DNA from: Bacteroidota bacterium
Lineage (GTDB): Bacteria; Bacteroidota; Bacteroidia; Bacteroidales; FEN-979
Assembly (NCBI GenBank): GCA_026391715.1
Contig: JAPLDO010000045.1
Coordinates: 73,758 to 137,757 of the forward strand
Direction: 5' to 3'
Length of the DNA: 64,000 nt
Shown: positions 17,801 through 32,725 of the stretch, piece by piece
Numbering within the stretch: position 1 is the first letter of the stretch
How the letters are laid out: each line of letters starts with the position of its first letter
Notes under the pieces: model-generated
The model's database searches: none
Told to the model about the DNA's origin: nothing
Seen by the model: the letters and a program-made list of their open reading frames with translations, nothing else
Position numbers and translations under genes: made by a program

Positions 17801-18593
17801 GAAAATCAATGATGAAATAGGACGCTTAGTTTCCGATTACAATAGAATGATTGATGAACTCGATAAAAGCGTAAATCAATTAGCGCTAAATGAAAGAGAA
17901 AGCGCTTGGCGGGAAATGGCCAGACAAGTAGCTCACGAAATTAAAAATCCGTTAACACCTATGAAACTGAGCGCTCAATATCTTCAGAAATCATGGAATG
18001 AACATGCGCCAGACATGGAGCAACGGATCACTCGCTTTACCAAAACCCTGGTCGAACAAATAGATACGCTTGCAACAATTGCCTCCGATTTTTCATGTTT
18101 TGCTAAAATGTCACCCCCTATATCTGAGCGACTCAATATTGTGGAAGTTATTAACACGGTATTGACATTGTATCAAGAATCAACCAATATCAGATATGTA
18201 TTTGAATCAGAAAATAACACTATAGAAATTTTGTCCGATCGTTCTCAATTGATAAGGGTTTTGACAAATTTAATCAACAATGCAGTTCAAGCTATTGGTT
18301 CCTTAAAGGATGGGTTAATCCTGTTAAGTCTGCATGAAACTACCGATCAGATAATTATTCAAATTTCAGATAACGGAATAGGCATTCCCGCAGACCTGGT
18401 ATCAAAGATATTTCAACCCGATTTTACTACAAAAACCGGAGGAATGGGATTGGGACTCGCCATTGTAAAAGGTATAATATTGGATATGAAGGGTGAAATT
18501 TCTTTCACATCAAACGAAAACACAGGCACGAATTTTACTATAAGGTTACCTATAAAAATTAAAAATAACGATGGCAAACCTATACAGATCTAA
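14817..18593 (+). CDS. Polytopic sensor histidine kinase
   Basis: 1258 aa with many TM segments. It has a HAMP-like segment, the H-box ARQVAHEIKNPLTPM, the N-box LTNLINNAVQA, and the G-boxes DNGIGI and GGMGLGLAIVK. The exact start is uncertain (TTG at 14817 or a later ATG). Confidence 0.9.
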   Translation: MTNFKIKIIKLKKFQHFIVAGILFMIIPCADWYINWTNIPENLLLVFRREIVNEEKALTIFVETISTNFASKTFTKATEDSVYNVINLEKPGISLFIVRNDTLIFWNSNREILSPGFFKSSENGFQVVHLQNGWFSVYTKKVVSYKFIAFALIKNDYSITNSYLKNYFSPPFTLPETVSLSIEKTPYPVFSANEKYLFSVAFPPERCNNLGFPVSFRLSNNFLVILRLLLFLLGSSFLLIFIYRICLSIIYFKTHKIQFLLSVSFIILILRTIQFYFQFPEHLYQTELFSPSLYSSSFFLPSLGDFLFNSLLIFYIVWIIGKINVVNQRKILHNKFWFIKYQGLLVILFVFFTILEFLITDLIINSSFSLNFQNIANLTAVSIYGLFIIVLLSGAFLIISYQIFEKIFSFSSKIEMLFSGLIISFFLYIIICKTTSTEINYGIILFFFVYACFNWYLKSMQKPRYSLLHILFLLFFYSLLATFLLNRANTLKENDNVNLIALNLISKQNPVTEDRYYQIVEKLRSDSILKKMLIFKNSHEHFSDSLNIYLKQRYFKDYWRRYNIQVTFCKPQQELSVQPQEYVIDCNHFFQNLIKNYGETTSAPGLYYLDFGYGKEYYLALLNTIESNATTEKQAQLYIEFTLPGIIPDPGYPGLLLDENWKNPAHQPNYTYALYQYGRLVHSVGNCNYLLELETYPRYSRISPYFFDNNLKHFHFRINEGSDLLISKTSNGFFSEITPFSYLFIIYSCLALIIKGFSMVKKGISSNPVDLRTKLQIYLTNILILTMVIIGILQVIYIIKINEMKKRDYLREKAYSLLTEVQDKFSASGTASDVINQEPENFLIKLSNIFFCDINLYDTRGFLISSSRKEIFAAGLISERINALAYKKMIIEHNSILIHEEVIGNMKFGSVYLPMHNNQGNLLGYINLPYFARLDDLKKEISSFLVTFVNIYILIILSGALISFLLSNYITSPLALLSTKMSLLRLGKPNEKISWKINDEIGRLVSDYNRMIDELDKSVNQLALNERESAWREMARQVAHEIKNPLTPMKLSAQYLQKSWNEHAPDMEQRITRFTKTLVEQIDTLATIASDFSCFAKMSPPISERLNIVEVINTVLTLYQESTNIRYVFESENNTIEILSDRSQLIRVLTNLINNAVQAIGSLKDGLILLSLHETTDQIIIQISDNGIGIPADLVSKIFQPDFTTKTGGMGLGLAIVKGIILDMKGEISFTSNENTGTNFTIRLPIKIKNNDGKPIQI

Positions 18594-19059
18594 ACGATTA
18601 TTTACCTTAGTTTTTATCTTACTTTTGATCATTAACCAGGCATGCATTCGGGAAAAACCAACCGCATTATATCATAAATTTCCCAGAAACCAGTGGGATA
18701 GATTTAATCTTTTGAGTTTTGAAATTCCTATTGAAAAGCCGAATGAAACTTTTGATATTTTTTTACTCTTCAGTTTCACACCCGAATTTCCATACGAGAC
18801 ACTTTTTTTTAACATGGATATGAAAACGCCATCTGGAGAGGAGCGGATCCATGAATATCAGTTGAAAGTAAAAACGAAAGAAGGAAAATTTCTTGGTGAA
18901 GTCACCGGGGATTCGTGTCAGCTTTCCATTAGTTTGAAGCGGTATTTAAAAATTACTAAGCCAGGCATTTTAAATATTGAACTCGAAAATCTTATCCCTC
19001 GTATGACAACTCAAGGAATATCAGGAGTTTCGATAAGTATAATGCATTCAGGCAAGTAG
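18571..19059 (+). CDS. Lipoprotein resembling gliding-motility lipoprotein GldH
   Basis: Lipobox IINQAC. Its size (162 aa) and the pattern YHKF..NQW.....L.F.....P...FDI....SFT.EFPY..LFF recall GldH from memory. Overlaps the kinase gene by 23 nt. Confidence 0.4.
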   Translation: MANLYRSKRLFTLVFILLLIINQACIREKPTALYHKFPRNQWDRFNLLSFEIPIEKPNETFDIFLLFSFTPEFPYETLFFNMDMKTPSGEERIHEYQLKVKTKEGKFLGEVTGDSCQLSISLKRYLKITKPGILNIELENLIPRMTTQGISGVSISIMHSGK

Positions 19060-19500
19060 GCATAAAGCCTGCCTTTTATCCTCACGAATTTGGATAACTA
19101 GTTCATCAAGATTCTTGAACTTTTTTTCGTCACGTATCCTGTCAATAAATTGAACAACCAGAATTTTTCCATATAAATCCTCTGAAAAATCAAATAAATT
19201 AATTTCCACATTCATAGTTTTTCCATCAACTGTTGGCCTAATTCCAGCGTTTGCCATTCCTTTGAAAGCACGCCTTTCTACTACAGCATATACCGCATAA
19301 ACTCCATAAGGAGGTAAAAATAAATTGTTATCAAACATTTTAAGATTGGCAGTAGGAAAACCTAACTTCCTACCTAAATGATTGCCATGAACAACGATAC
19401 CTTTGATCCAGTAAAAACCTCCAGTAAGTTTATTAAAAAGCTGCATGTTTCCTTCTGAAATTGCGACTTTTGCTACCTCTGAAAAGTTATTTGGTTTCAT
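19048..19500 (-). CDS. ribF: Riboflavin kinase domain only (RibF C-terminal half)
   Basis: VVHGNHLGRKLGFPTANL...PYGVYAV...RPT...EINLFDF..DLYG...FIDRIRDEKKF is the RibF kinase domain. At 150 aa, no FAD-synthetase (nucleotidyltransferase) domain is encoded. Confidence 0.85.
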   Translation of the reverse strand: MKPNNFSEVAKVAISEGNMQLFNKLTGGFYWIKGIVVHGNHLGRKLGFPTANLKMFDNNLFLPPYGVYAVYAVVERRAFKGMANAGIRPTVDGKTMNVEINLFDFSEDLYGKILVVQFIDRIRDEKKFKNLDELVIQIREDKRQALCLLA

Positions 19501-19505
19501 CCATT

Positions 19506-20414
19506 TTAGAAAAGGTTTATATTCTTTTTACTTAGCCGTTTTATCATTATCAGCTCGTAAACCGCATAAAAATAATGAGCCCAAACACCCAAAAGCATTA
19601 CAATAAGTGTAATAATCATCCACATTGGAGCAATAGGAGTCCATAATTCCCGTGAAGGAACCTCCGCCTTGTAATATTGTTTTGGAACGCCCCAGTTTAT
19701 AGTATTTTTGCCCTCCACAAATCCATAAACGTCATGCTCTTCTATTCTAGCCATAACAATAAGGTTTCCCAGCGTATCTCCAACGATTTCTTTTGGAAAC
19801 TCAAGTGTTCCTGTTCCCGTTTCATCAAGTGAAATCTCGCCAATTTTAAGAAGGCTGAAAAGCCTTGGAACATATATCATAACGGTTTCTTTAGAAATCG
19901 GAATTACCTCCCTTTTCGCATTTTTCTGAGTTGCAGTAACTCTTAGTGTTTTAACAGAATCCTCGACGCTAAAAAAAAGTTTAAGACTTGCGGGTTTTGC
20001 GCTAAAAGAAACTTCAGTAGCAGGATATTTGAGTGTTTCTGCAAATTTTGCCATATATGAAATCATTCCGTCTTTGTTCGTAGGTAAACCAGTAATAGAG
20101 AAAGTAAATTTGGCTATTCCCTCTTGATTTGTATTAACTGTTCCGATTACCTTGTTAGATGTTTCCCCAATCACAATAAATTCAACCTGAGCATCTTCAA
20201 GTGCAAGCGTATTTTCTTCGCGCTTTATTAGCAAAGTAGCTGTGAGGTATACTGAATCCTGCGGACCACAAAAATAGCCCAGCGTAAGCTTGGTTTCGGT
20301 ATATATATTTGCAGAATCCAGGTTTTCCTCTGCTTTCAAATTGTGTGGTTGCATCATCGCGATGAACAATACCAAAATGGTGAGAAAAGAGTTATACTTT
20401 TTCATAGTAATCAT
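19506..20414 (-). CDS. Secreted, C-terminally membrane-anchored protein of unknown function (last gene of the respiratory operon)
   Basis: 302 aa with a signal peptide (...MMQPHNLKA), a beta-rich body and a C-terminal TM (WMIITLIVMLLGVWAHYFYAVY). Starts 17 nt after the NrfD-like gene. Confidence 0.55.
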   Translation of the reverse strand: MITMKKYNSFLTILVLFIAMMQPHNLKAEENLDSANIYTETKLTLGYFCGPQDSVYLTATLLIKREENTLALEDAQVEFIVIGETSNKVIGTVNTNQEGIAKFTFSITGLPTNKDGMISYMAKFAETLKYPATEVSFSAKPASLKLFFSVEDSVKTLRVTATQKNAKREVIPISKETVMIYVPRLFSLLKIGEISLDETGTGTLEFPKEIVGDTLGNLIVMARIEEHDVYGFVEGKNTINWGVPKQYYKAEVPSRELWTPIAPMWMIITLIVMLLGVWAHYFYAVYELIMIKRLSKKNINLF

Positions 20415-20431
20415 TTAATTTCAGTTGATTT

Positions 20432-21745
20432 TCAAACCAATACATCTTCTTTTTTAGCTTCTTCCATCAAACCAGTTACTGGTACAATAGGTACAAACTT
20501 TGATGCGAGTGTAAACAAAAGACAGAATACTGCAACTCCGGCAGCATTCAGGCTCCATTCCACCCAGGTAGCAGTATAATTCACCCACTCAGGCCTGGCA
20601 TCCTGGATAGGGAGATAGGGCGATTCGAGTGTAGGTACCACAATTATATACCGGTTTAGCCAAAGGGCAATAACGACAACTATTGAGGTAAGCGTTATAT
20701 TGGTTACCGTTCTGAATTTAGGTATTCCTACAACTATCAAAGGTAACAGCACACCGATATAGTTTGAAATTATAAAAGGCCAGTAAAATTCCTTGAAAAG
20801 CAACTGAATAAGGAGTTCGTCATTTTTTTCCGAACCATACCATTTGGTCAGATAATCGCTAAAAGTAAAATATCCGAAAAAGGCGGCAAGAACAAGCATT
20901 ATCACCCCAACAGCAACGAAGTGTTTTTTTGTGATGTAATCCTCCAGATGATAAACCTTTCTAAAAACCCACATTGTGATTATCAGCACTGCGCTTCCCG
21001 AATAAACTGCCGCAATTACGAAGTATGGGCCAAAAATTGTACTGTGCCAGCCAGGTTGTAGCGTAACGCTAAAAATCCAAGCTAATACAGAATAAACGAT
21101 AATAGCAATTGAAATAACCATTGCAGCCATAATATCTGTTGCCCTGTTGAGACGCTGCTGTTGTTCCGGGGCGCCGGTATAACCCAATGCAAGGGCTTTA
21201 TAAATGCGTTTTCTCCAGCTAGGAAGACGAAGGAAGTCGTCATCGCGAAGTGTTGCCAGATCGCGTAATAAAGCGAGATAAAGGAAAATGAAACACCCGA
21301 AAATATCGGTTGAAATGGCAATTACGTCCCATGTAATTGGTGATTGAATACGTCCAAAAATTACAAGATAATAAAGTTTATCTAGTCTGCCAATACAAAG
21401 AAGAATAAAGCAAGGGCCAATTAAAAGTGAAATTACCGTAATAAATTCAGCCATCCTGATAACTGGTTTGCGCCAGGTAGTTTTGAACAAATGTAGTGTT
21501 CCAGATATCAGTGCGCCAGCGTAACTGATACCCATAAAGAATATGAAGTTAACAATATATACCCCCCAAACAACGTTGTCGCGCATTCCTGTTACTTCAT
21601 GACCTTTAAAAACCTGCTGAAAAAAAGCATAAATTCCAAAACCGATCACGGCAAGCAGAAATACAATCCAAGCATATCCTGCAAAACTGGTTTGCTCAAG
21701 TTGCGGAGCAAATTCCCTTAATGGACTCTTTTTTTCGTTTTCCAT
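20432..21745 (-). CDS. NrfD/PsrC-type polytopic quinone-interacting membrane subunit
   Basis: 437 aa with about 10 TM segments. Sequence character and position directly after an NrfC-type ferredoxin fit the polysulfide reductase NrfD family. Confidence 0.8.
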   Translation of the reverse strand: MENEKKSPLREFAPQLEQTSFAGYAWIVFLLAVIGFGIYAFFQQVFKGHEVTGMRDNVVWGVYIVNFIFFMGISYAGALISGTLHLFKTTWRKPVIRMAEFITVISLLIGPCFILLCIGRLDKLYYLVIFGRIQSPITWDVIAISTDIFGCFIFLYLALLRDLATLRDDDFLRLPSWRKRIYKALALGYTGAPEQQQRLNRATDIMAAMVISIAIIVYSVLAWIFSVTLQPGWHSTIFGPYFVIAAVYSGSAVLIITMWVFRKVYHLEDYITKKHFVAVGVIMLVLAAFFGYFTFSDYLTKWYGSEKNDELLIQLLFKEFYWPFIISNYIGVLLPLIVVGIPKFRTVTNITLTSIVVVIALWLNRYIIVVPTLESPYLPIQDARPEWVNYTATWVEWSLNAAGVAVFCLLFTLASKFVPIVPVTGLMEEAKKEDVLV

Positions 21746-21747
21746 AT

Positions 21748-22710
21748 TTACGGCTTATTTTTTCTACTATATGGTGTATCTTTATATCTGCTTTTAACCT
21801 CTTCGGTCAAATCCGGAAAACCACGATCAACAGGAAACTGACGATCAACGGGTGGTAGGTAATAAACACAAGGCCTTGTCCCAAGAGTCTCAAGGTATCT
21901 GTATCCAGCCCGGTCACGGATCAACTGGCTGAACTGGTATGTTTCAGTTCCATTGGTTACTGTATCTTCATCCACATCGCCAAAATAGATTACGCCCATC
22001 GGGCAGGCAGAAACGCAATATGGTACTTTACCAACCCGTATCAAATCGGGACAGAAATCGCACTTTGAAACCGTACCCTCCTTTCCAGGGCTGCTAGCTT
22101 CCGGTGAATAAGGCTCTTTATCTTCATCAAACTCGTGATAATGCTTCCATGCAAAAACGCGAGTTGAATATGGACACCCTGTCATGCAGAATTTGCAACC
22201 GATGCAGCGTTCATTATCTATAAGTACAATGCCATCGCTTCGTTTATATGTGGCGCCAACAGGGCAAACACTCACGCACAAAGGGTTGTCGCAGTGAAAG
22301 CAAGGCTTTGGGAACCAATACGGAGAAGTTTTTTCAGAATCCTGTAACAAATACACTTTCAGAAACTCTTGACTTTTTGGAAGATGATGCCCTTTCTGGC
22401 AAGCTTCTACGCATTTCCTGGCATTTTTGCATTTACCAAGATCAATAACCATGACAAATTTTCGCCCCGGAAGTCCTTTATGGGATTCTTCGCGAGAAAC
22501 CCTGGGTAATTTAAGGAGGCCTCTATCCACTTCCATGATCTCTCCTCCAGTTGTGAGGACTTTTACCTTCTTTCCGGATTCCGTTGCATTTGTGTCAACG
22601 TAAGCTGAAACCAAGCCACCGCCGGCTGCTATTCCGGCTCCAGCCAGCAGCCCTTTTTTCAAAAACTGCCGGCGGGAATTTTTTTTATTCAGATTAGATT
22701 GCTCTTCCAC
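21748..22710 (-). CDS. Tat-exported 4Fe-4S ferredoxin subunit (NrfC/PsrB/DsrO/HybA type)
   Basis: Twin-arginine signal SRRQFLKKGLLAGAG. Cys clusters are CKNARKCVEAC, CFHCDNPLCVSVCP, CIGCKFCMTGCP and CDFCPDL...CVSACP. Confidence 0.9.
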   Translation of the reverse strand: MEEQSNLNKKNSRRQFLKKGLLAGAGIAAGGGLVSAYVDTNATESGKKVKVLTTGGEIMEVDRGLLKLPRVSREESHKGLPGRKFVMVIDLGKCKNARKCVEACQKGHHLPKSQEFLKVYLLQDSEKTSPYWFPKPCFHCDNPLCVSVCPVGATYKRSDGIVLIDNERCIGCKFCMTGCPYSTRVFAWKHYHEFDEDKEPYSPEASSPGKEGTVSKCDFCPDLIRVGKVPYCVSACPMGVIYFGDVDEDTVTNGTETYQFSQLIRDRAGYRYLETLGTRPCVYYLPPVDRQFPVDRGFPDLTEEVKSRYKDTPYSRKNKP

Positions 22711-22721
22711 GTTTCTTGATT

Positions 22722-23345
22722 TTAATGTGAATCATGATAACCATTAATCATGCTTTTAAAATTACTTGTTGGATTTTTCCCGATAGTGCAAAAATATATG
22801 TGGACACACATAATCAGACTAATGCCAAACCCTGCAATTATGTGTACAAAATCTGTCAAATCCAGTCCGCTGAAACCGAATACACTATTAACGGTTATTT
22901 CCGGATACAATAGGCCCAAACCGGAAATAATTACAAAAGGCACCAAAATATACATCAGAACTACATAAGTAAGCTGCTGTAACGGATTAAATTTTTCTTC
23001 CTCATTAGCCGGAAAAGGGGCTTGTTCATTTTTGAAAATTCCGATTGTATAAAAATATAATTGTTTTTTCAGCCTGTCAAATGTGTTTTTCAGTGGAATT
23101 ACATAATGACCTCCGTTTTTTGTAAAAAGATTCCCAAAAAAGAAAACGAGGTAACTTAATAAAAGCAGCATCCCCGCAATATTATGAAAAGTGACAGCCA
23201 TGTTGAATTTAACAATGGTTGAAGGATTTGAAAACTGAATACTTAAACCTGTAATAATTAAAATTACGCAAAACAATGCATTTGTCATGTGCCAGATCCT
23301 TATCCAAAAAGGATACAAATAAAGGCGTAGGGAGCTATGATTCAT
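22722..23345 (-). CDS. Membrane b-type cytochrome (Ni/Fe-hydrogenase / PhsC / FdnI cytochrome b family-like)
   Basis: 207 aa with 4 TM segments. Conserved His residues sit in TM helices (IWHMTN, FHNIAG, FVHIIAG, CVHIYF). The start overlaps the upstream cytochrome c gene by 11 nt. Confidence 0.7.
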   Translation of the reverse strand: MNHSSLRLYLYPFWIRIWHMTNALFCVILIITGLSIQFSNPSTIVKFNMAVTFHNIAGMLLLLSYLVFFFGNLFTKNGGHYVIPLKNTFDRLKKQLYFYTIGIFKNEQAPFPANEEEKFNPLQQLTYVVLMYILVPFVIISGLGLLYPEITVNSVFGFSGLDLTDFVHIIAGFGISLIMCVHIYFCTIGKNPTSNFKSMINGYHDSH

Positions 23346-24372
23346 GTGGATGGTTATTTTTTATACGCAAAACTGCGTGGATAATGATTGCGAAAATAGT
23401 TAGCCCGAAAATAATAAAACTAATGATATTCAAGGTGTTGCTTTGATCGGGTCCAATAGTAGTTGAATTTCCCAATAGCAAACCTTTAACAAAACCTTCT
23501 TTCTGAATTTGGGAACTCACCTGGTATTTATATAAGGAGGCGTAAAGAATCGAATTCTGTGAATGACAAGATTCACACTTGCGGACCGCCTGACTTTTAG
23601 GTACCACATGATGAGCAACAACCAAAGTATCCTCATTTTTGGCATGACATTCAATACATCTAACATTCGTAAAATGAGAAGCCTGATTTGGCAGCCATTC
23701 ATGTTTCTGAAGGATATTTGGATTTACTTTATCGGTAAGTAACTGATAATTTTTGATATCTGCATGACAGTTCAGACATATAAGGTTATCATAAGTAATT
23801 GTCTCTTTAAGGATGCTGGTATTCCGCGCATTTATTTTGTAGGTATGAGCATCATGACACATCCAGCATGTAAAATCTTCGCTATGTTTTTCGGAATGGA
23901 CGCTGGCCATAAATCCTGTATCAATTTGCTCAAATTGAAATTTTGCGTATTTCTCATCTCCTCCATGACAGTCAATGCAAGTGGCAATTGCTTCCATGCG
24001 AAGGTTTCCGTTATGGGGGAAAGCGCCATAATCTTCAGAATGACAATCGGTACATTTAAATTCCCGGTGGTTGCTAGAGTAGAAAAGTTCACGGTTGATT
24101 ATAACTTCTGAATACATCCGCTTAGAAACATTTTTATTTGTTTCTTTATTTTGATATGAATATTTCGACTGGCCATGACATTTGAAACAGTTTTCGTTTT
24201 CAACTGCATTTTTAAATTTCATAAAATCTGTCTTTGCCGCTTTTTCTTTTTCGGTTTGAGTTGTAACAATCGGTTTTAAATCAGATGTTTTTAAAAGAAT
24301 AAGGGCAATGGCACACAATAGCAACATCAAAAGAACAAGCCAAGCCGGGCGTAAATTTGCTTTATAAATCAT
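23335..24372 (-). CDS. Heptahaem c-type cytochrome with N- and C-terminal TM anchors
   Basis: Seven CxxCH motifs: CFKCH, CTDCH, CIDCH, CWMCH, CLNCH, CIECH, CESCH. N-terminal TM is WLVLLMLLLCAIALILL and C-terminal TM is IISFIIFGLTIFAIIIHAVL. Confidence 0.9.
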   Translation of the reverse strand: MIYKANLRPAWLVLLMLLLCAIALILLKTSDLKPIVTTQTEKEKAAKTDFMKFKNAVENENCFKCHGQSKYSYQNKETNKNVSKRMYSEVIINRELFYSSNHREFKCTDCHSEDYGAFPHNGNLRMEAIATCIDCHGGDEKYAKFQFEQIDTGFMASVHSEKHSEDFTCWMCHDAHTYKINARNTSILKETITYDNLICLNCHADIKNYQLLTDKVNPNILQKHEWLPNQASHFTNVRCIECHAKNEDTLVVAHHVVPKSQAVRKCESCHSQNSILYASLYKYQVSSQIQKEGFVKGLLLGNSTTIGPDQSNTLNIISFIIFGLTIFAIIIHAVLRIKNNHPHES

Positions 24373-24416
24373 AGTATCTTAAAGTAAATATAAGGGATTG
24401 CATTGCAAAAAGAAAT

Positions 24417-24449
24417 GGGTGTAAACAGGAAATTATCTGTTTTACACCC
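24417..24449 (-). terminator. Hairpin terminator after the monohaem cytochrome c gene
   Basis: gggtgtaaacag-gaaattat-ctgttttacaccc: a 12-bp perfect stem, followed on the minus strand by a T-rich tract. Confidence 0.65.
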
Positions 24450-24481
24450 ATTTGGTTAATCATAATAAACGCGGTATGCAA

Positions 24482-24898
24482 TTATTTCTTGAAAGTACGC
24501 ATGTAGGCAACTAACGCCCAACGATCGTTTGCATCGGGAATTTTCTTTTCATAGGCAGGCATTTCATCGCGGCCTTTATCGGTGCGAAAGAAAAGTTCGC
24601 CATCAGTAGATCCTTGAAAAGCTGCTGAAGAGAAATCTCCCGGGAAAGTTTTCAATGATGCGCCTTTTGGTCCATCGCCCAAACCTTTGCTGCCATGGCA
24701 CGATTTACAATGCTTTGCCCAAAGTTCTTTCCCAGTAGCAACATCAGCTTTTGCTGAGGCTTTCAAAGCCTTGTCTTTATCGGGAACAGGCCATGTCTTT
24801 GCTTTGGCTTGTTGCGCAGAAGCTGCATGACCAAACAGAAAAACGACAGCAACAATAGCTGTAACAATGATTGTTGAAATTTTTTGAGATGTTTTCAT
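24482..24898 (-). CDS. Periplasmic monohaem class I cytochrome c
   Basis: Signal peptide, one CKSCHG site, and a distal Met in DEMPAY. 138 aa. Confidence 0.9.
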   Translation of the reverse strand: MKTSQKISTIIVTAIVAVVFLFGHAASAQQAKAKTWPVPDKDKALKASAKADVATGKELWAKHCKSCHGSKGLGDGPKGASLKTFPGDFSSAAFQGSTDGELFFRTDKGRDEMPAYEKKIPDANDRWALVAYMRTFKK

Positions 24899-24942
24899 AA
24901 TTTTTAATTGTTAGTTGTTTAACATTTTGTTTTGGTTTTGGA

Positions 24943-26010
24943 TTAAAAGGTCCACAACCGGGTTATATTAAATCCAAGAAGAATTGCGCCATTATATGGA
25001 TTATTATTATTATGCATCACGGTTTCCTGGGGAACGAGTCCATTGGCTGCCGTCAGAAAGATCTGGAATGCGTGTGTACTTGTTGAAATTTCCACACCAA
25101 GACCAAAATTGGGCCACGGGGCAGTATTCACGTAAGTAAAAACAGGTTGAGAGTAACTAAGTATGATTGATGCCTGTGGGCTGATCTTCACTTTTCCTAT
25201 ACCGGAAATATTGATGTTATCGTTTGTCATTCCATTTACATGGTTATTGTCCGATTCGGCTTGATCGACCAGGTTATAATGTACCCATGAAATCCCGAGC
25301 TGTGCCGAAAATTCCTTACAAAACCTACGGGCAAACATAAATTCAGCAAAATATGAGAACCTGTAAGAAGCTTTAAAGGTTTGGTCAAATAATGAACTCA
25401 GATCCGGCTGGTTAGCTCCATTTAATCCTGATGCCTGGTTGTAGGTAATATAGTTAATTCCGGCGTTAGTGTCGTTTTCAATAATCTGATTTTGAATGCT
25501 TCTTCGGAAGGCAGTATCTTTTACTAATGAATTGTAATCAAGATCGGATAGCAGTTTATTATTTCCAAGAGAGGATTTATTACTAGCATTTATAGCCACA
25601 TTTCCAAAAAAAGAAATAGTAACAGGAAAACCATCTTTCCTTTGACGAGCAATGACATATTTAATGTTAAAATCCTGCAGCATTTTTAACTTAGTGGTTC
25701 CAAACCCCACCTGCAGATTTTTTGTTATTGTAAAATTAAGCCCGAGACGGATGTTGGAAGCGCCCCAAATTCCATAGAGGTCAGACCAGTGTTGTTGTAT
25801 CGTTCCAAAGTCATGCTGGATAACAGCTTCAAGGGTTCTTGCAGGGGGCAGAAAAACAGTTCGGTCTGCCATAAAATAACCGCTTTCAAATGGAGCTTTT
25901 GCCAATGGTTTCCGGGTGTGTTGTTCAGGGATTGAATCCTGGGCAATAACCATTCCAAGACCGCTCATCATGAAAATAAAACCCAGGGCTAATCGTTTCA
26001 TTTTATCCAT
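24943..26010 (-). CDS. Outer-membrane beta-barrel protein (porin-like)
   Basis: Signal peptide ...GMVIAQD, alternating amphipathic beta-strand pattern, and a C-terminal ...FNITRLWTF aromatic terminus typical of OM barrels. The IQHDFG...IRLGLNF pattern recalls a Bacteroidota barrel family (DUF5777?), but this is unverified. Confidence 0.6.
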   Translation of the reverse strand: MDKMKRLALGFIFMMSGLGMVIAQDSIPEQHTRKPLAKAPFESGYFMADRTVFLPPARTLEAVIQHDFGTIQQHWSDLYGIWGASNIRLGLNFTITKNLQVGFGTTKLKMLQDFNIKYVIARQRKDGFPVTISFFGNVAINASNKSSLGNNKLLSDLDYNSLVKDTAFRRSIQNQIIENDTNAGINYITYNQASGLNGANQPDLSSLFDQTFKASYRFSYFAEFMFARRFCKEFSAQLGISWVHYNLVDQAESDNNHVNGMTNDNINISGIGKVKISPQASIILSYSQPVFTYVNTAPWPNFGLGVEISTSTHAFQIFLTAANGLVPQETVMHNNNNPYNGAILLGFNITRLWTF

Positions 26011-26056
26011 AATATTTATGTATGTATTTAGATTAAATATAAGTGTGAAAAATCAA

Positions 26057-26449
26057 TTAATTATTTACAGCGCCCTCACTGATCCATTTTAAAACAGAAT
26101 CGGCATTGGCTTTGTTGCAATGCTGGCTCATGCCGCCACCGGACGCCATTTCGATATACAGTATGCTGGTTTCCGGCGCGCCCGTGTCTATCATACCTGC
26201 CATATTCTTCATAGCCTGATAGGATTTTCCATCAGTCAGAACTGGTGGATTCTGTCCAACACCGTGACAACTAACACATTTTTCAGTAAAAATGGGTTGT
26301 ATTTCCCCAGCATAACTGATTTTCCCTGGTACCGGTGGAGGAGGTGGTGGTGAAGGAGGATCCGGTACGATTAAATCCTTCGTACATGCTGAAAAGATAA
26401 AAAGCACGAAAAAGATCGTAATCAGTTTTTTCAACTTTTTGCTTTGCAT
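26057..26449 (-). CDS. Lipoprotein monohaem cytochrome c with poly-proline linker (PSCyt1-like domain)
   Basis: Lipobox IFSAC, linker PDPPSPPPPPPVPG, and the IQPIFTEKCVSCHG motif. Confidence 0.85.
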   Translation of the reverse strand: MQSKKLKKLITIFFVLFIFSACTKDLIVPDPPSPPPPPPVPGKISYAGEIQPIFTEKCVSCHGVGQNPPVLTDGKSYQAMKNMAGMIDTGAPETSILYIEMASGGGMSQHCNKANADSVLKWISEGAVNN

Positions 26450-26612
26450 AATTATTTATTTTAGATTAAACTATTAATAATTCGATAATAATTGGTTTTC
26501 TGAGGTACTGAAAATGCGATTTTTTATGGTTGTAAAAAAGCCTCAGGTTCGCTGAAGCCTTTTTCGAATTTAATACCACTTTATTCCAGGGTTGTTAACA
26601 TCAATAAAAAAT

Positions 26613-26654
26613 ACAGATTCCAAAAATAAATCAATTTTTATTTTTGGAATCTGT
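26613..26654 (-). terminator. Strong intrinsic terminator after the hexahaem cytochrome gene
   Basis: An 18-bp perfect inverted repeat, acagattccaaaaataaa / tttatttttggaatctgt, followed on the minus strand by ATTTTTTA. Confidence 0.8.
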
Positions 26655-26672
26655 GCCGCAATTAAAACCTAA

Positions 26673-27977
26673 TTAGGGATTTGCGGTTAACCAATCAATA
26701 GAATTTTGTAAAAGTTGCAGCGCATAAGGAGGATTGTGAACGCCCATAGATAATTCACTGTTGATATAGGCATAGTTGTAAGCTGCACCTAATTCACCAT
26801 ATTTCCATACGCGGCCTATTCTGTTTGCAAAATCGGTATCTTTTGCGTATTTCAGCATATTGCCGTAAATCACCAGACCAGTTGTCGGGCTAACAGTGTT
26901 ATTACTTGAACTTGTTGCATAAAGTTCTGAACTTGTAACAGTTTGGTACAGTTTTCCATTGAAATCGTGGCTTGGAAGCGCGCTGTAAGATACAACTCCA
27001 GATGTATTTGTAGTTTTCTTGAAAACTTTTCTGGCAGTAAGGAGTTCGGCTAATTGTATTCTTTTTGCATCAATAAGGGCTTGAACAGGGGTTATTTTAT
27101 CGCCGCCGTGACATGCAGTACATTCAGCTTTGTTAGCCCATAATGTGTGACCACCGGTTGAGTCGGCTGGATTATATTTATTCATGTGGCAATCCGTACA
27201 TGCAAAAGCTGAGTGTTTCCAAGTTCTTGTATATGTTTTGCCTTGATATTCATAACCATTAATACCTGAAAATAAATTTGACTGGTTTCCATCATGAACT
27301 GAGAAGCTTCTCCCAACCCGGTATTGAACAGTATCATTGTCATTCGTATTCACAAAAGGAAAATATGGCAATTGGTCAAATGCTTTATTTATAACCTGGG
27401 GTCTGAGAGTAGTATCGGAATAAACCAAAGAGGTGGCGCCACGAATCTGGTGGCAACTAACACACAGGTTATTTATTGCGCCAAAATCTGTTGCGGTAAG
27501 ATTTTTGTTATAATTCAAATATACTGGCGTAATACTTCTTAAAATTTGAGCAACTGTATCGCCGGTAAAATCAAATGAACTATGTTTATGGCAGGTTGTA
27601 CAGTTAACTCTGTTTGCAGTTGGCATATCGTTTGCTACAACATATTGTCCACTCCCTAAAATTTGAATAAATCCTTCGCTTGTGTGACATCTTGCGCAAA
27701 ATTTAGTATTTCTACTACTTGCTGTTCCCATATAATGTTTTGAAAAATGGTACTCGGCAATTTTTGAATCAAAATTAGCAATGGTATGGCAAACAAGACA
27801 GGAAGCTGTTCCGTCTTTACCATTTAAGCCATCAACTCCGTTCACTCCGTTAATTCCGTTTACTCCGTTTACTCCGGCAGTACCTTGCGGACCTTCTTTG
27901 GTGCAGGCAGTAAACATCAACATTGCAGCCGAAACCATCATTCCGGCAGCAATAATAAATTTGTGTAATTTTTTCAT
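26673..27977 (-). CDS. Hexahaem c-type cytochrome lipoprotein with collagen-like stalk
   Basis: Start at MKKLHKFIIAAGMMVSAAMLMFTAC (lipobox), then ten G-X-Y triplets. Six CxxCH motifs: CLVCH, CARCH, CTTCH, CVSCH, CTDCH, CTACH. Confidence 0.9.
   Translation of the reverse strand: MKKLHKFIIAAGMMVSAAMLMFTACTKEGPQGTAGVNGVNGINGVNGVDGLNGKDGTASCLVCHTIANFDSKIAEYHFSKHYMGTASSRNTKFCARCHTSEGFIQILGSGQYVVANDMPTANRVNCTTCHKHSSFDFTGDTVAQILRSITPVYLNYNKNLTATDFGAINNLCVSCHQIRGATSLVYSDTTLRPQVINKAFDQLPYFPFVNTNDNDTVQYRVGRSFSVHDGNQSNLFSGINGYEYQGKTYTRTWKHSAFACTDCHMNKYNPADSTGGHTLWANKAECTACHGGDKITPVQALIDAKRIQLAELLTARKVFKKTTNTSGVVSYSALPSHDFNGKLYQTVTSSELYATSSSNNTVSPTTGLVIYGNMLKYAKDTDFANRIGRVWKYGELGAAYNYAYINSELSMGVHNPPYALQLLQNSIDWLTANP
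27804..27893 (-). repeat. Collagen-like G-X-Y coding repeat (10 triplets, 9-bp DNA periodicity)
   Basis: GPQ GTA GVN GVN GIN GVN GVD GLN GKD GTA, read directly from the reverse complement. Confidence 0.9.
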
Positions 27978-28046
27978 TTTTTTACAGATTTTGTTAATAA
28001 ATACGTTTGAATTGCAGCAGACAACTTGTGCAAAAAGTTTCCGCAA

Positions 28047-28054
28047 CAAAAGTA
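28047..28054 (-). promoter_or_regulatory. -7 promoter box TACTTTTG upstream of the hexahaem cytochrome gene
   Basis: The reverse complement of caaaagta matches TAnnTTTG, about 70 nt upstream of ATG 27977. It overlaps the longer ORF start at 28049, which argues against that start. Confidence 0.4.
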
Positions 28055-28130
28055 TCTAAGAAAACAAGAACCCCTCGTATGGTATTGGTGAGATTTGTTA
28101 ATATAATAACTGACATTTCTCAACCGGCTG

Positions 28131-28144
28131 TTGATAAATATCAA
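28131..28144. promoter_or_regulatory. Perfect Fnr/Crp-family box TTGATAAATATCAA
   Basis: Exact TTGAT-N4-ATCAA palindrome in the 180-bp spacer between the regulator gene and the hexahaem cytochrome gene. Confidence 0.7.
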
Positions 28145-28157
28145 TCATTATGTATGA

Positions 28158-28853
28158 TCAGCCAGTTTCGCTGATCTGACGAAGTTGTTTTATATTAAGG
28201 ATTTCCATTTTATTTCCTGCAACTGTTAATATACCCTCCTCCTTAAATTCTTTTAAAATTCTTATGGCGCTTTCTTTCGACATCCCAGAAAGATCGGCCA
28301 GATCCTGTCGTGAAATGCTTAATTCAAAAGGGTTTTTGCAATAGATTTTTTCGGAAAGGTAAAAAATGACGTCCGCAATCCTGCCGGGCATTTGCTTTTG
28401 AGTTAGACTGACGATCTGTTCAAAGTTAAAGATTGATTGCAGAGATACTCGTTTTAAAAAATCCTCGGCAAAATCTGGATTTTCACGAATCAGTTTTTTA
28501 AAAACGGATGCATCCACAAGACAGGCTGTACAGTCTTCAACGGCTGATGCTGAGTAATAGTGACGATTATCAACGTATATACCGGGTCCGAAGATGTAAT
28601 CAACCGGTTTTACAAGCGCCAGAATAAGATTTTTGCCATACCCCTCAATATAGATTTTTGCCAATCCTGATGTAATACAAACAAAGTAGGGCGAAGGTGT
28701 GCCTTGTTTAAAAATGATTTCTCCAGCTTTATAGTCAACCTGAAACCGGCTGTTGTTGATTAAATCAAGCTCTATCGAACCTAAATTTTTAAAAATCTGA
28801 GTTTTGCAGTTGCAATCATTACAATTGGATGCCTGATGATTTTTATTGATCAT
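28158..28853 (-). CDS. Crp/Fnr family transcriptional regulator with N-terminal Cys cluster
   Basis: Has a cNMP-binding-like beta-roll and a C-terminal HTH (SRQDLADLSGMSKESAIRILKEF). The N-terminus is MINKNHQASNCNDCNCKT. Start set at 28853, downstream of the -7 box at 28890-28897. Confidence 0.85.
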   Translation of the reverse strand: MINKNHQASNCNDCNCKTQIFKNLGSIELDLINNSRFQVDYKAGEIIFKQGTPSPYFVCITSGLAKIYIEGYGKNLILALVKPVDYIFGPGIYVDNRHYYSASAVEDCTACLVDASVFKKLIRENPDFAEDFLKRVSLQSIFNFEQIVSLTQKQMPGRIADVIFYLSEKIYCKNPFELSISRQDLADLSGMSKESAIRILKEFKEEGILTVAGNKMEILNIKQLRQISETG

Positions 28854-28889
28854 TATACTGCCTCTTAGACTTTGCTTTTTAGTATCGGA

Positions 28890-28897
28890 CAAAATTA
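28890..28897 (-). promoter_or_regulatory. -7 promoter box TAATTTTG for the Crp/Fnr gene
   Basis: The reverse complement of caaaatta. It lies 37 nt upstream of ATG 28853 and about 60 nt downstream of the second Fnr box. Confidence 0.5.
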
Positions 28898-28949
28898 GTA
28901 ATAAAATGATAAAAAGCAACATTATTACTATTTTTCATCAACTAAGAGG

Positions 28950-28963
28950 TTGATAAAAATCAA
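28950..28963. promoter_or_regulatory. Perfect Fnr/Crp-family box TTGATAAAAATCAA
   Basis: Exact TTGAT-N4-ATCAA palindrome upstream of the regulator gene itself. Confidence 0.7.
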
Positions 28964-30028: not shown

Positions 30029-30136
30029 GCGGGGTCGAGTTTTAGGCAAAGATAATGAAATGGCGAAATGGCAAAAAAGTTATTAACAGTGGTTTTACTT
30101 TTTGGGTTTTGGGGGATTAAACAGAAAAATGAAATC

Positions 30137-32725
30137 ATGAAAAAACTATTCTTATTGCTTTTCCTTGCTCCGATGATGGCGCCGGGGCAGGTTATTGATA
30201 ATTTTTCGGATGGAAATTTTTCGGTCAATCCCGCGTGGACAGGCGATACGACACAGTTTGAGGTTAATCTGAGCAATCAGCTTCAGTTGCAATCATCGGG
30301 AACAGACACTTCAATTCTTCTTACCCGCAGCGGCAGGACGGTAAATACAGAATGGAGTTTCTGGATGAAACTTTCCTTCAATACTTCGTCAAACAACAAC
30401 GCACGCATCTATTTACTTTCCGATTCGGCAAATCTGAAATGCGCCAACGCAATCTTTTTACAGGTAGGAGGTTCCGATGATTCCATCGCAATAATCAAGC
30501 AGAATGGCATTGAACTACGATCGTTATACAAGTTAAGATCATATAAAACCGATAATTCTACCAATATTATGAGGTTCAAAATAATCAGAGACGACCAGGG
30601 CGCATGGGAAACCTATATTGATACGACTGGTGGTTTCAATTATATTCCTGATGGCGGTTTTTCAGAAACTTCAATTTTTCAATCCAGATGGTTTGGAGTT
30701 TACTGCCGTTATACATCAAGCAATGCCGCAAAATTCTGGTTTGATGATTTCTATGTGGGAGCGATCATCCATGATATTATGCCGCCCCAGGTAATTTCAC
30801 AGGAAATTATATCTGAAAATAACATCAAAATTGCATTATCGGAACCAATTCAGAAGCAGGAGGCGGAAAACCCTGCAAACTTCAGGCTTTTTTCAGATGG
30901 TTATCCCGATTCGGCAAAACTGGATGTAAACGATCCAACCATTATAATTCTTAGTTTTCCCGGAATATTCCCCGAAGGAGCTATTGATACGCTATTGGTT
31001 CATGGAATAAGCGATCTCAACGGAAACTTGATTCGGGATACGTTGGTTCCTGTTTTTTATTACACGCCGCAAGCTTTTGATATTGTAATCAACGAAGTTC
31101 TTGCCGACCCTGATCCTCCGGTTGAACTGCCTGTTGCAGAATTTGTAGAATTATACAACCGTACCGTTTATCCGCTGAATTTGAAAGACTGGACATTTCA
31201 GTGTGGAAGCTATTCAAAAGTATTCCCAGTTGTGACAATACCTCCAAAAGGCTATTTGATTATTTCTAAAGATTCGGTTTTCCTCCATTTTGGTTTATGC
31301 ACAACATTGTTCACCTCATCAAGTTCATTGTCGAATGAAGGTACAACATTGGCGTTAATGGATCAGCAAAAGCATATCATTCATTCTGTTTCATACAATC
31401 CTGAATGGTTTGGCGGTTCCTTCAAAGGCGATGGCGGTTGGTCGCTCGAAATGTCCGACCCTGCAAATCCTTGCGGTTGTATGGAAAACTGGAGCGCCTC
31501 CACCGATTATACTGGCGGTACTCCCGGAAGAAAAAATTCTAATATCAGGTCAAATCCAGATATTACCAAACCTCTCATTTCAAGGGCATTTATTGCCGAT
31601 TCCTCAACCCTGAAGATTAGTTTTTCTGAAGCCATGGATAGTCTAACTCTTCTTTCGCAAGAGAACTGGATCGTAAACCCTGAAAAGATGGGACTTCCAG
31701 AAAGTGTGGAACCTGAAGCGCCACGATTCGACGCGGTAAAACTGCATTTTAGCAATAAGTTTACAAGAGGCGTTTTATATAATTTGTCAATCGCCGGCAA
31801 AATAACAGATTGTGCCGGAAACCAGATTGATTCATCTCGTAATGTGCGGTTTGCAATTCCTGATTCCGTTGCATTTCACGATGTTGTTATCAATGAGTTT
31901 TTACCGGATCCCGCTACCGGCGGATCAAGATTTACGGAACTATATAACCGTTCGGATAAGATACTTGATCTGCAATCATTGGTCATCGCCGTAAGCGACG
32001 CCGCCAGCCTTCAGGCTGATGCAGAACCATTGACAGATAATGGCTATTTGTTGTTTCCAGGGGATTATGTTGCGTTTACTTCCAATCCTGCTGAAATTAT
32101 TTCTCGCTACCGTCCGCAGTTTCCCGAGGCAATCATGGGAATGGAAAAATTCCCGACTTTGGGAAATGATTCGGGAACCGTTATCATTGCAAGAAAGGAT
32201 AACTTTGCCGTGATTGACCGGGTTCGGTATGACGCAGCCATGCACTATCCGATATTGGCTACAACCGAAGGTGTTTCACTGGAAAGGGCAAGCCCCGAAT
32301 TACCATCCGACGACAGGAACAACTGGCATTCGGCTGCTGAAACCGTTGGATTTGCAACTCCGGGATACCAAAATTCCCACCAGCTATATCCGGCAAACGA
32401 TGGATTGGATATATCTGTAACTCCGGAAGTTTTTTCCCCGGATAACGACGGATTTGACGATCTGCTGAGTATCGCCATTCGTGAACCGAATCCCGGATTT
32501 TCGGTTAATATTTACATCTACGATTCACGCGGAAGAGCGATAAAACAGGTGGCAAACCAGGTTTATGCAGGCAACGAAGGTTTTTTTTGCTGGGATGGAA
32601 CGACAGGCGCGAACAGAAAAGCCGGAATTGGAATCTATGTTTTGCTGATCGAGGTAACAAGACAGGATGGAACTGTAAAGAAGGTGAAAAAAACCACTGT
32701 ACTTGGAGGAAAGTTATCACAATAA
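30137..32725 (+). CDS. Secreted protein with two lamin-tail (LTD) domains and a T9SS type-B (gliding motility-associated) C-terminal domain
   Basis: Signal peptide MKKLFLLLFLAPMMAPGQ. LTD motifs are VINEVLADPDP...EFVELYN and VINEFLPDPATGG..FTELYN. The C-terminus FSPDNDGFDDLLSI...IYIYDSRGR resembles the CHU_C / type-B sorting domain. Confidence 0.75.
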   Translation: MKKLFLLLFLAPMMAPGQVIDNFSDGNFSVNPAWTGDTTQFEVNLSNQLQLQSSGTDTSILLTRSGRTVNTEWSFWMKLSFNTSSNNNARIYLLSDSANLKCANAIFLQVGGSDDSIAIIKQNGIELRSLYKLRSYKTDNSTNIMRFKIIRDDQGAWETYIDTTGGFNYIPDGGFSETSIFQSRWFGVYCRYTSSNAAKFWFDDFYVGAIIHDIMPPQVISQEIISENNIKIALSEPIQKQEAENPANFRLFSDGYPDSAKLDVNDPTIIILSFPGIFPEGAIDTLLVHGISDLNGNLIRDTLVPVFYYTPQAFDIVINEVLADPDPPVELPVAEFVELYNRTVYPLNLKDWTFQCGSYSKVFPVVTIPPKGYLIISKDSVFLHFGLCTTLFTSSSSLSNEGTTLALMDQQKHIIHSVSYNPEWFGGSFKGDGGWSLEMSDPANPCGCMENWSASTDYTGGTPGRKNSNIRSNPDITKPLISRAFIADSSTLKISFSEAMDSLTLLSQENWIVNPEKMGLPESVEPEAPRFDAVKLHFSNKFTRGVLYNLSIAGKITDCAGNQIDSSRNVRFAIPDSVAFHDVVINEFLPDPATGGSRFTELYNRSDKILDLQSLVIAVSDAASLQADAEPLTDNGYLLFPGDYVAFTSNPAEIISRYRPQFPEAIMGMEKFPTLGNDSGTVIIARKDNFAVIDRVRYDAAMHYPILATTEGVSLERASPELPSDDRNNWHSAAETVGFATPGYQNSHQLYPANDGLDISVTPEVFSPDNDGFDDLLSIAIREPNPGFSVNIYIYDSRGRAIKQVANQVYAGNEGFFCWDGTTGANRKAGIGIYVLLIEVTRQDGTVKKVKKTTVLGGKLSQ

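Follow-up and report, generated by a model that had tools for sequence, protein, structure and literature searches.

A conserved fifteen-haem gene cluster of Bacteroidota built around a DUF5777 outer-membrane barrel: a candidate pathway for extracellular electron transfer

Gene organization of the cluster

We report here on a cluster of ten genes (g1–g10) in a stretch of 64 000 nucleotides from contig JAPLDO010000045.1 of a Bacteroidota bacterium (assembly GCA_026391715.1); this whole 64-kb stretch, from whose first letter all positions are counted, is referred to below as the window. The ten open reading frames (ORFs) are co-oriented on the minus strand between positions 19506 and 28922, in agreement with an initial annotation that had been made from the sequence. 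Protein families were assigned to the window proteins by Pfam and NCBIfam profile searches, and the transmembrane helices of g6, g7 and g10 were located with a hydropathy scan. The profiles bore out the gene identities given at the outset, with matches to Crp/Fnr, DUF5777, cytochrome, Ni_hydr_CYTB, Fer4_11 and NrfD families, and g10 fell in no family. CxxCH motifs number 15 across the cluster, with six in g2, one in g3, one in g5 and seven in g6, and the fifteen haems counted previously are thus accounted for. The genes and the signals beside them are as follows.

28950–28963, no strand assigned: FNR/CRP-type perfect palindrome TTGATAAAAATCAA, 5' of g1; equivalents lie 5' of g1 in related loci
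28158–28922, minus strand: g1, Crp/Fnr-family regulator; cNMP_binding and HTH_Crp_2 domains; top NCBIfam matches FnrL and Fnr
28131–28144, no strand assigned: perfect FNR box TTGATAAATATCAA, about 150 bp 5' of the g2 start
26673–27977, minus strand: g2, hexahaem c-type cytochrome lipoprotein on a collagen-like stalk; six CxxCH; weak MtrC/MtrF_II-IV, c7 and Collagen matches
26613–26654, minus strand: terminator-like hairpin directly 3' of g2; 18-bp stem followed by a T run
26057–26449, minus strand: g3, small monohaem c-type cytochrome lipoprotein with a Pro-rich (poly-Pro) linker; one CxxCH
24943–26010, minus strand: g4, DUF5777 (PF19089) outer-membrane beta-barrel; E 5e-61, 206.5 bits against a cut-off of 23.1; ends in NITRLWTF
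24482–24898, minus strand: g5, periplasmic monohaem class-I cytochrome c, proposed shuttle; Cytochrome_CBB3 and Cytochrom_C matches; signal peptide
23335–24372, minus strand: g6, heptahaem cytochrome c (CbcA-like); seven CxxCH; transmembrane helices 9–27 and 316–334
22722–23345, minus strand: g7, four-helix dihaem cytochrome b (PhsC/CbcB-like), candidate quinol site; Ni_hydr_CYTB (PF01292), 6e-26
21748–22710, minus strand: g8, Tat-exported periplasmic four-cluster ferredoxin (NrfC/PsrB/DsrO type), 320 aa; Fer4_11; Tat signal SRRQFLKKG
20432–21745, minus strand: g9, NrfD-family integral membrane quinol-interacting subunit; NrfD, 1e-31
19506–20414, minus strand: g10, periplasmic Ig-like protein of 302 aa with one C-terminal transmembrane helix; new family

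All ten genes were confirmed, but two of the limits first given for them have been revised: g2 starts at an ATG at 27977 and not at a TTG at 28049, and the true start of g1 is probably an ATG at 28853, which gives a product of 231 aa. From g3 to g10 neighbouring genes overlap or are separated by gaps of 2–109 bp, which indicates co-transcription. Neither a molybdopterin enzyme nor NrfA or Hao was found by Pfam and NCBIfam among the ORFs of the cluster or elsewhere in the window, and the absence of a catalytic subunit, which had been remarked on for the cluster and its surroundings, therefore extends to the window as a whole.

Conservation and modularity

A total of 166 related loci were compared. 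The ORFs of 84 genome loci were searched with the window proteins, and 80 metagenome loci served as a second sample. The barrel g4 has 1025 homologues in the protein collection, and relatives of it occur in at least 579 species-representative genomes. The 80 genomes listed are nearly all metagenome-assembled genomes (MAGs) of Bacteroidota, including Prolixibacteraceae, Draconibacterium, Mariniphaga, Maribellus, Lentimicrobiaceae, Cyclobacteriaceae and Puia. Their isolate names and sample sources are mainly lakes, peat and groundwater; that the habitats of the hosts are anoxic and humic- or iron-rich is our reading of the sample names. The presence of the genes in the 84 genome loci and the three architectures observed are listed below.

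Single genes, number of loci: g3 directly upstream of g4, 82; g5, 73; g2, 73; g6, 73; g7, 70; g1, 66
NrfD module, number of loci: g8, 44; g9, 43; g10, 42
Architecture A: Fnr-g2-g3-g4-g5-g6-g7 only
Architecture B: g3-g4(-g4)-g8-g9-g10-g5 ... g2, without g6 and g7; Cyclobacteriaceae and Puia
Architecture C: both inner-membrane modules, as in the window

The arrangement recurs in the 84 genome loci and in about 50 metagenome loci, which repeat the order g3-g4-g6-g7(-g8-g9-g10)-g5, and recurrence in both samples indicates that it is not due to chance. The order g2-g3-g4-g5-g6-g7 persists across families at barrel identities down to 32%, even where the flanking genes are different. The invariant core of the cluster is the g3–g4 pair, since the direct adjacency tabulated above for the genome loci is also found in 40 of the 80 metagenome loci, many of which are truncated. 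By contrast with an earlier suggestion that the NrfCD-type proteins and the cytochrome b represent one merged logic, the g6–g7 and g8–g9–g10 sets are separable, being alternative or additive inner-membrane modules, and many loci carry only one of them. Thus g8–g10 have been lost in three loci of type C (L011, L024 and L042), and g6–g7 are missing from L064 and L072. The gene-neighbourhood comparison that had been recommended shows a ten-gene theme that is conserved in Bacteroidota, with modules that vary.

A conserved catalytic partner, which according to the initial annotation would refute its interpretation, was looked for in the homologous loci. It is absent from 83 of the 84 genome loci, and the exception (L058) has an ArrAB-like enzyme and no NrfD. 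In the large majority of related loci we therefore find what had been proposed, namely one conserved respiratory unit without a catalytic partner.

Regulator and FNR boxes

Four cysteines of g1 (Cys34, Cys37, Cys82 and Cys134) are 86–100% conserved among its homologues. As would be expected of an FNR-type protein, these should suffice to bind a [4Fe-4S] cluster, and g1 is predicted to be an oxygen sensor. Perfect TTGAT-N4-ATCAA sites occur only twice in the window, compared with 0.3 expected, one of them upstream of g1 and the other upstream of g2. FNR boxes are present at the same position 5' of g2 or g3 in many related loci. Over 1.48 Mb of these loci, about two dozen of the 44 perfect boxes lie no more than 260 bp upstream of g1, g2 or g3, and where g2 sits elsewhere the boxes are found 5' of g3. 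A scan for sigma-70 promoters gave results at background level, the model being unsuited to Bacteroidota promoters. Taken together, the boxes and the conserved cysteines of g1 would fit anaerobic induction.

The layout of these signals also bears on whether the cluster works as one machine. It could be that g2 is independent, that g3–g4 are a separate pair and that g6–g7 and g8–g10 are general quinol:cytochrome c oxidoreductases available to any periplasmic reductase, with shared regulation or haem biogenesis as the reason for their being together. Such independence would be in keeping with the terminator-like hairpin after g2, the FNR box that g2 has to itself, the occurrence of g2 homologues as stand-alone genes (described below) and the gain and loss of g8–g10 or g6–g7 between the loci just named. 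It is at odds with the g2-to-g7 order, which is retained over great divergence of the barrel and in differing surroundings, with the close spacing or overlap of g3–g10 and with the boxes that precede g3 where g2 lies elsewhere. We consider this explanation to be quite improbable.

Inner-membrane modules

The first module consists of g6 and g7, which overlap by 11 bp and are fused as one ORF of 540 aa in L049. His19, His54, His168 and His182 of g7 are invariant in 66 homologues, and the protein scores 189.5 bits with the PRK15006 PhsC model, which is below the cut-off of 204 bits. There are 14 invariant periplasmic histidines in g6, enough for seven bis-His haems, and His332, in the C-terminal helix, is 99% conserved. 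Sequence searches of the Protein Data Bank (PDB) gave marginal matches only for g6 and nothing for g7. In Geobacter sulfurreducens, CbcBA (part of Cbc5; GSU0593–0594) is an inner-membrane quinol oxidase used in extracellular electron transfer (EET) at low redox potential, and the C-terminal helix of the seven-haem cytochrome CbcA appears to provide a ligand to a b haem (Joshi, Chan & Bond, 2021). The module described here shares with CbcBA a PhsC/thiosulfate-reductase-like four-helix dihaem cytochrome b that stands beside a seven-haem cytochrome with a histidine in its C-terminal transmembrane helix, and the fusion in L049 is of the b/c kind that Joshi et al. describe for Chloroflexi. The same authors propose cbcBA as a marker for EET and note in one sentence that homologous cbcBA clusters are found in Prolixibacter, Marinilabiliales and Labilibaculum. 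There are also differences: g6 carries an additional N-terminal transmembrane helix, the regulator is a Crp/Fnr protein acting with FNR boxes whereas CbcBA has the sigma-54 regulator BccR, and the pair is embedded here with an NrfCD-type module and an outer-membrane barrel. A gene-for-gene match to the Geobacter cbcEDCBA cluster was considered and rejected; GSU0591 appears in papers on chemotaxis and periplasmic sensor domains, so CbcD/E were not equated with NrfC/D.

The second module consists of g8, g9 and g10. Over nearly its full length (residues 25–424), g9 matches ActC, the quinol-oxidizing subunit of alternative complex III (ACIII), with 187 bits for 6F0K_C (E 4.9e-54) and 170 bits for 6BTM_C (5.9e-49). 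Among solved structures g8 is most similar to PsrB (2VPW_B) and to the FeS part of ActB. Scores with the DsrO model (173 bits for g8) and with DsrP (87 bits) are below the respective cut-offs, and NCBIfam gave weak matches to QrcC and QrcD. In ACIII (ActABCDEF; 6F0K from Rhodothermus marinus and 6BTM from Flavobacterium johnsoniae) an NrfD-type subunit is likewise combined with a four-cluster FeS protein, and both ACIII and the Geobacter complex Cbc4 are quinol:cytochrome c oxidoreductases. In contrast to ACIII, g8 lacks the molybdopterin-like B1 domain, a single NrfD gene is present with no ActF, and the module has neither the pentahaem ActA nor the monohaem ActE, the haem-free single-span g10 being there instead. 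Judged by its domain content, the module is not an ACIII. Cbc4 (CbcSTU), from an EET organism, comprises a tetrahaem cytochrome, a four-cluster FeS protein and a membrane subunit, and its tetrahaem CbcS has no dedicated counterpart here. Although g8 and g9 are of the same superfamilies as NrfCD, PsrBC, TtrBC and DsrOP, the cluster and the window contain no NrfA, PsrA, TtrA or DsrMK partner, and nearly all of the homologous loci also lack one.

No relative of g10 was found in Pfam, NCBIfam or the PDB. Its family comprises 830 cluster representatives of about 290–310 aa, within which the Ig-like N-terminal part is variable, unlike the membrane-proximal segment and the helix (NWGVPKQYYKAEVPSRELWTPIAP...GVWAHYxYAxYE), which hardly change. 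In the 84 loci g10 always accompanies g8–g9, and in P0403 NrfD and g10 are fused into one protein of 740 aa. On this sequence evidence g10 is the predicted third subunit of the module and belongs to no described family. The NrfD–g10 fusion and the g6–g7 fusion in L049 support the existence of physical complexes.

Both CbcBA and the ActC-containing ACIII oxidize quinol and feed periplasmic cytochromes, and on this basis both modules would be expected to oxidize quinol, as had been suggested for NrfCD and/or the cytochrome b. Sister loci contain what look like further EET-style parts, which lends support to this assignment. A fusion of about 930 aa, with 19 CxxCH motifs and Ni_hydr_CYTB, lies downstream of g6–g7 in three of them (L045:14115–16931, L053:9065–11872 and L065:14126–16942; domain content determined with Pfam in L045) and has the architecture of CbcL with twice the haems. 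[quoted passage not shown]

Outer-membrane pair

A C..CH motif is kept in all 118 distinct homologues of g3 (89 CxxCH, 21 Cx4CH, seven CxCH and one Cx3CH). The protein has a Met or His at the position expected for the sixth haem ligand and a conserved C-terminus, W-I-x-Q-G-A-x-N-N. The barrel homologues that are listed have 245–386 aa with PF19089 as their sole domain, and every locus encodes g3 and g4 by two distinct genes. The AlphaFold2 (AF2) model of g4 has 12 strands (pLDDT 82, pTM 0.72); a helical insert of about 75 aa is specific to the sub-clade of g4, and shorter homologues do without it. Foldseek searches with the model returned generic 12-strand barrels, namely FapF, the COG4313 channel, NanC and KdgM, at about 10% identity, and a PDB sequence search with g4 found nothing. 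According to a crude strand-parity analysis of the model, the lumen is lined by the invariant residues R88, D113, K117, E223, R229 and E307 and by many glycines. Two histidines, His66 (QH[RD]FG) and His313 (STSTHxFQ), are conserved in every barrel compared. A lumenal haem bound by these histidines was considered and rejected on the basis of their strand parity, which is weak evidence.

The cluster had initially been likened to porin–cytochrome conduits. In common with MtrCAB and DmsEFAB of Shewanella and with Pcc and Ext of Geobacter, it has a quinol oxidase, a periplasmic haem relay, a barrel and a lipoprotein multihaem cytochrome; the likeness in sequence to MtrCAB is confined to weak MtrC/MtrF_II-IV domain matches. 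The barrels of those systems have 20–26 strands or more compared with 12 here, and there is no soluble periplasmic deca- or octahaem cytochrome in this cluster to thread the barrel. Since a 12-strand barrel that folds like FapF, NanC, KdgM and COG4313 is too small to hold a multihaem cytochrome, the Mtr/Pcc picture cannot apply and this part of the initial annotation has been abandoned.

A closer comparison is provided by Cyc2, the fused monohaem cytochrome–porin of iron oxidizers. The two share the pairing of a small outer-membrane barrel with a single c-type haem, next to which there is a periplasmic cytochrome c of class I. Unlike Cyc2, the lipoprotein and the barrel are encoded by two genes, with no fusion seen among the homologues; 12 strands are modelled, against about 16; and the context points to quinol oxidation under anoxia more than to Fe(II) oxidation. 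By architecture, a split Cyc2-like arrangement may be regarded as the nearest analogy for g3/g4.

This analogy invites the question of whether electrons might travel inwards. In an electron-uptake system for the oxidation of Fe(II) or minerals, g3–g4 would be a split Cyc2-like oxidase that passes electrons through g5 to inner-membrane modules running in reverse or feeding another reductase. With its monohaem cytochrome, small barrel and class-I periplasmic cytochrome c, the cluster mirrors Cyc2/Cyc1, and some related NrfD complexes, such as the Qrc complex to which weak QrcC/QrcD matches were noted above, are quinone reductases. However, the nearest relatives of the inner-membrane modules (CbcBA and ACIII) are quinol oxidases, sister loci contain ImcH- and CbcL-like architectures, the regulator is of the Fnr type linked to anoxia, and no terminal oxidase or nitrate reductase is found in the cluster or the window. 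Moreover, Bacteroidota use low-potential menaquinone, which makes the flow of electrons from Fe(II) to quinone strongly uphill. Uptake is in our opinion very unlikely to be the function of the cluster.

Hexahaem lipoprotein and the variable terminal slot

The lipid-bearing cysteine of g2 is followed by nine Gly-X-Y triplets, and its homologues all have a lipobox cysteine and 5–20 such triplets. The collagen-like stalk predicted from these repeats is probably trimeric. Redox proteins on a collagen-like stalk seem unusual. In 120 matches the homologues are 59–94% identical, with a mean column identity of 58%. They have six invariant extra histidines and one that is nearly invariant; these suffice for six bis-His haems, so that no open catalytic haem is evident in g2. 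The AF2 model of g2 is of low confidence, with a mean pLDDT of 64 and values below 50 across the haem-binding half, and a Foldseek search with it against the PDB gave nothing significant. We draw no conclusion from this model as to an MtrC-, OmcS- or NrfA-like fold. Marginal matches only were obtained in a PDB sequence search, and a short part of the protein weakly resembles the C-terminal helices of NrfA.

The terminal slot filled by g2 in the window is occupied differently elsewhere. Many loci have, instead of the g2 type or together with it, a second type of six-haem protein that is about 350 aa long, and in L066, L080 and L082 the slot holds an EB_dh (haem b) protein, which in L066 (7961–9562) also has a collagen-like linker. 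In a groundwater Bacteroidetes MAG (L058:4410–10864) the order is an ArrA-like molybdoenzyme, an ArrB-like FeS subunit, a NarJ-like chaperone, a g3-like lipoprotein and a DUF5777 barrel, with two Fnr-like genes flanking the set. The ArrA-like enzyme has a Tat signal and scores 876 bits with the ArrA model, and the ArrB-like subunit ends in a sorting domain of the type IX secretion system (T9SS). The position of this tagged subunit beside the barrel pair implies a surface redox enzyme that needs electrons from inside and that would resemble a respiratory arsenate reductase. The arrangement parallels that in Shewanella, where DmsEF connects the cell to DmsAB, an extracellular DMSO reductase.

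Comparable associations are seen in a distant DUF5777 subfamily (24–29% identity), in which a PSCyt1-like lipoprotein precedes the barrel and T9SS cargo proteins flank it. The cluster of this subfamily (L156, L159, L162, L163 and L164; at about 6000–10500 in L159 and L162–L164) comprises a T9SS-tagged protein, a PSCyt1-like lipoprotein of about 144 aa whose PSCyt1 match is sub-threshold, a YceI-like protein and the barrel. L159 and L163 contain an additional protein in which a Temptin_C domain is combined with a CxxCH motif and a T9SS sorting domain. Two Cyclobacteriaceae loci have two DUF5777 barrels in tandem (L064:9959–11748 and L072:10001–11745). The cluster of L064 also includes a gene for cytochrome c biogenesis in which ResB and CcsA are fused (CcsBA), with a gene for glutamyl-tRNA reductase (HemA) directly upstream, and the ORFs of L072 match these in size and position.

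The properties of g2 and of the barrel may be read in another way, as parts of a periplasmic respiration of a soluble acceptor. The barrel would then be a substrate channel for a small oxidant (a chelated metal, a quinone-like shuttle, or a sulfur or nitrogen oxyanion), g2 would be a periplasmic terminal reductase and g3 a relay docked at the outer membrane and facing the periplasm. The nearest folds to the barrel are channels for small solutes or polypeptides, and the charged and polar residues of its lumen are invariant. Furthermore, g2 is unusually well conserved and occurs by itself in another phylum, as an enzyme might; it resembles the NrfA helices locally, albeit weakly; and its lipoprotein export signal is incomplete (see below). 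On the other hand, the histidines of g2 are enough for six bis-His haems and leave no catalytic haem evidently open, and a substrate channel would not explain why a monohaem lipoprotein is constantly coupled to the barrel or why the pair lies beside a T9SS-tagged ArrAB-like enzyme and T9SS cargo. The exchange of unrelated redox proteins in the terminal slot is also a better fit to a generic conduit. We regard periplasmic respiration of this kind as unlikely.

Proposed pathway

In our view, the balance of the observations tips modestly towards the cluster being an anaerobically induced respiratory pathway that exports menaquinol electrons towards the cell surface, that is, a pathway for EET. 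All assignments of function made here are computational. Under anoxia, g1 could bind the two boxes before g1 and g2. Menaquinol would be oxidized by g7/g6 and by g9/g8/g10, as judged from their relatives, and the electrons would pass to periplasmic c haems, those of g6 and then that of the monohaem g5. The homology and conserved features of the components give us considerable confidence in these inner-membrane steps. From g5 the electrons may be transferred to the outer-membrane pair g3/g4, which might act as a split Cyc2-like cytochrome–porin and carry them across the outer membrane one haem at a time. Their acceptor could be the stalked hexahaem lipoprotein g2, which might in turn reduce acceptors that are insoluble or of high molecular weight, for example humic substances or Fe(III) minerals. 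These last steps are the least certain; the crossing of the outer membrane and the surface location are deduced from gene association, and we would put their chances at even or a little below.

Several observations weigh against an EET pathway of this form. The cluster had been described as Fnr-controlled, and a Crp/Fnr-family g1 with perfect boxes before g1 and g2 is consistent with that description. No FNR box is found upstream of g3 in this window, and the strong terminator-like hairpin parts g2 from g3–g10; since the boxes precede g1 and g2 only, Fnr control of g3–g10 is at present inferred. The relationship of g6/g7 to CbcBA is one of resemblance, based on published features and on the statement of Joshi et al. 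(2021). To our knowledge there is no precedent for a 12-strand barrel as an electron conduit. In addition, the conserved histidines of g4 lie near strand ends and, by the crude strand parity, in a lipid-facing register.

Doubt also attaches to the surface location and role of g2. The minimal lipoprotein export signal of Bacteroidota is K-(D/E)2, which g2 and g3 match in part only: the lipid cysteine begins the sequence C-T-K-E-G in g2 and C-T-K-D-L in g3, with one acidic residue in each. Hexahaem lipoproteins that are 60–63% identical to g2 occur as stand-alone genes at L085:10001–11263 and L086:10001–11272, with no cytochrome or barrel nearby, the host of L085 being a Gemmatimonadaceae MAG (Gemmatimonadota). 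This indicates that g2 might have a separate function, for which the conduit need not be required. Finally, a metagenome scan with the L058 barrel returned no close relatives, and the link between ArrAB and T9SS is thus seen at a single locus.

More speculatively, and with odds that we would place clearly below even, the DUF5777 barrel and the monohaem lipoprotein may constitute a minimal trans-outer-membrane electron 'socket', a split cytochrome–porin of Bacteroidota and their relatives. Such a socket would take interchangeable surface modules (the collagen-stalked hexahaem protein, EB_dh haem-b proteins or T9SS molybdoenzymes such as the ArrAB-like enzyme) and would be fed by a quinol oxidase of the CbcBA, ACIII (with g10), ImcH or CbcL type.

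Flanking genes and other features of the window

The genes that adjoin the cluster are listed below.

19048–19500, minus strand: riboflavin kinase, 150 aa, Flavokinase domain alone; starts 5 bp past g10
14817–19059 and 30068–32725, plus strand: flanks kept in this lineage, with a 1258-aa multi-span histidine kinase, a GldH-like lipoprotein and an 885-aa LTD (lamin-tail) protein

The flanks are also kept within this lineage in architecture C, with asd and the LTD protein on one side and riboflavin kinase, GldH and the histidine kinase on the other. The riboflavin kinase was considered as an eleventh member of the cluster and rejected, as it adjoins GldH and the histidine kinase even where g8–g10 or g6–g10 are not present. 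It is absent from the clusters of other families in the synteny comparison of the 84 loci, and we therefore take it for a probable flanking gene and not for a sign that flavins are connected with the cluster.

T9SS sorting domains are present on two large proteins of the window (36676–39663 and 54139–57555, both on the minus strand), which indicates that a T9SS is present in the organism; sorting domains of this kind are lacking from both g2 and g3. The G+C content of the window is about 32% at 8–16 kb compared with about 48–50% at 56–64 kb. The high-GC end contains an ORF of 2090 aa (57566–63838) and a T9SS-tagged protein of 1138 aa with cohesin and laminin-G domains.

Relation to published work and significance

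The logic of EET, CbcBA-like and NrfCD-type modules and cbcBA homologues in Bacteroidetes were already known. The initial annotation had recognized no described system of this composition in Bacteroidota, which stands for the outer-membrane module, for which we found no published description, but not for the cbcBA homologues reported by Joshi, Chan & Bond (2021). An anode-associated cluster termed 'Bacteroidetes_1' (PMC8258643) has six multihaem cytochromes and one barrel and so differs in composition from the one described here. Our literature search returned no paper that mentions DUF5777, and the cluster is not described in the papers that we consulted on EET in bioanode communities, in large-scale surveys of outer-membrane cytochromes and in peat. 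Nor did we find in the literature a description of the DUF5777 barrel with its monohaem lipoprotein, of g10, of the collagen-stalked hexahaem cytochrome or of the modular make-up that the cluster shows in hundreds of genomes of Bacteroidota.

Fermenters and polymer degraders that belong to the Bacteroidota abound in anoxic lake water, peat, sediments, groundwater and bioelectrochemical reactors. Respiration of minerals, humic substances or electrodes is not usually ascribed to members of this phylum. If the proposed pathway is correct, those that carry the cluster, which amount to at least 579 species-level genomes, would have an external electron sink, and models of carbon turnover, of iron and humic cycling and of methane suppression in such habitats would be affected. 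At the outer membrane, one haem and a barrel of 12 strands would do what large porin–cytochrome complexes do in Shewanella and Geobacter, and DUF5777 and g10 would represent new families of respiratory components and marker genes.

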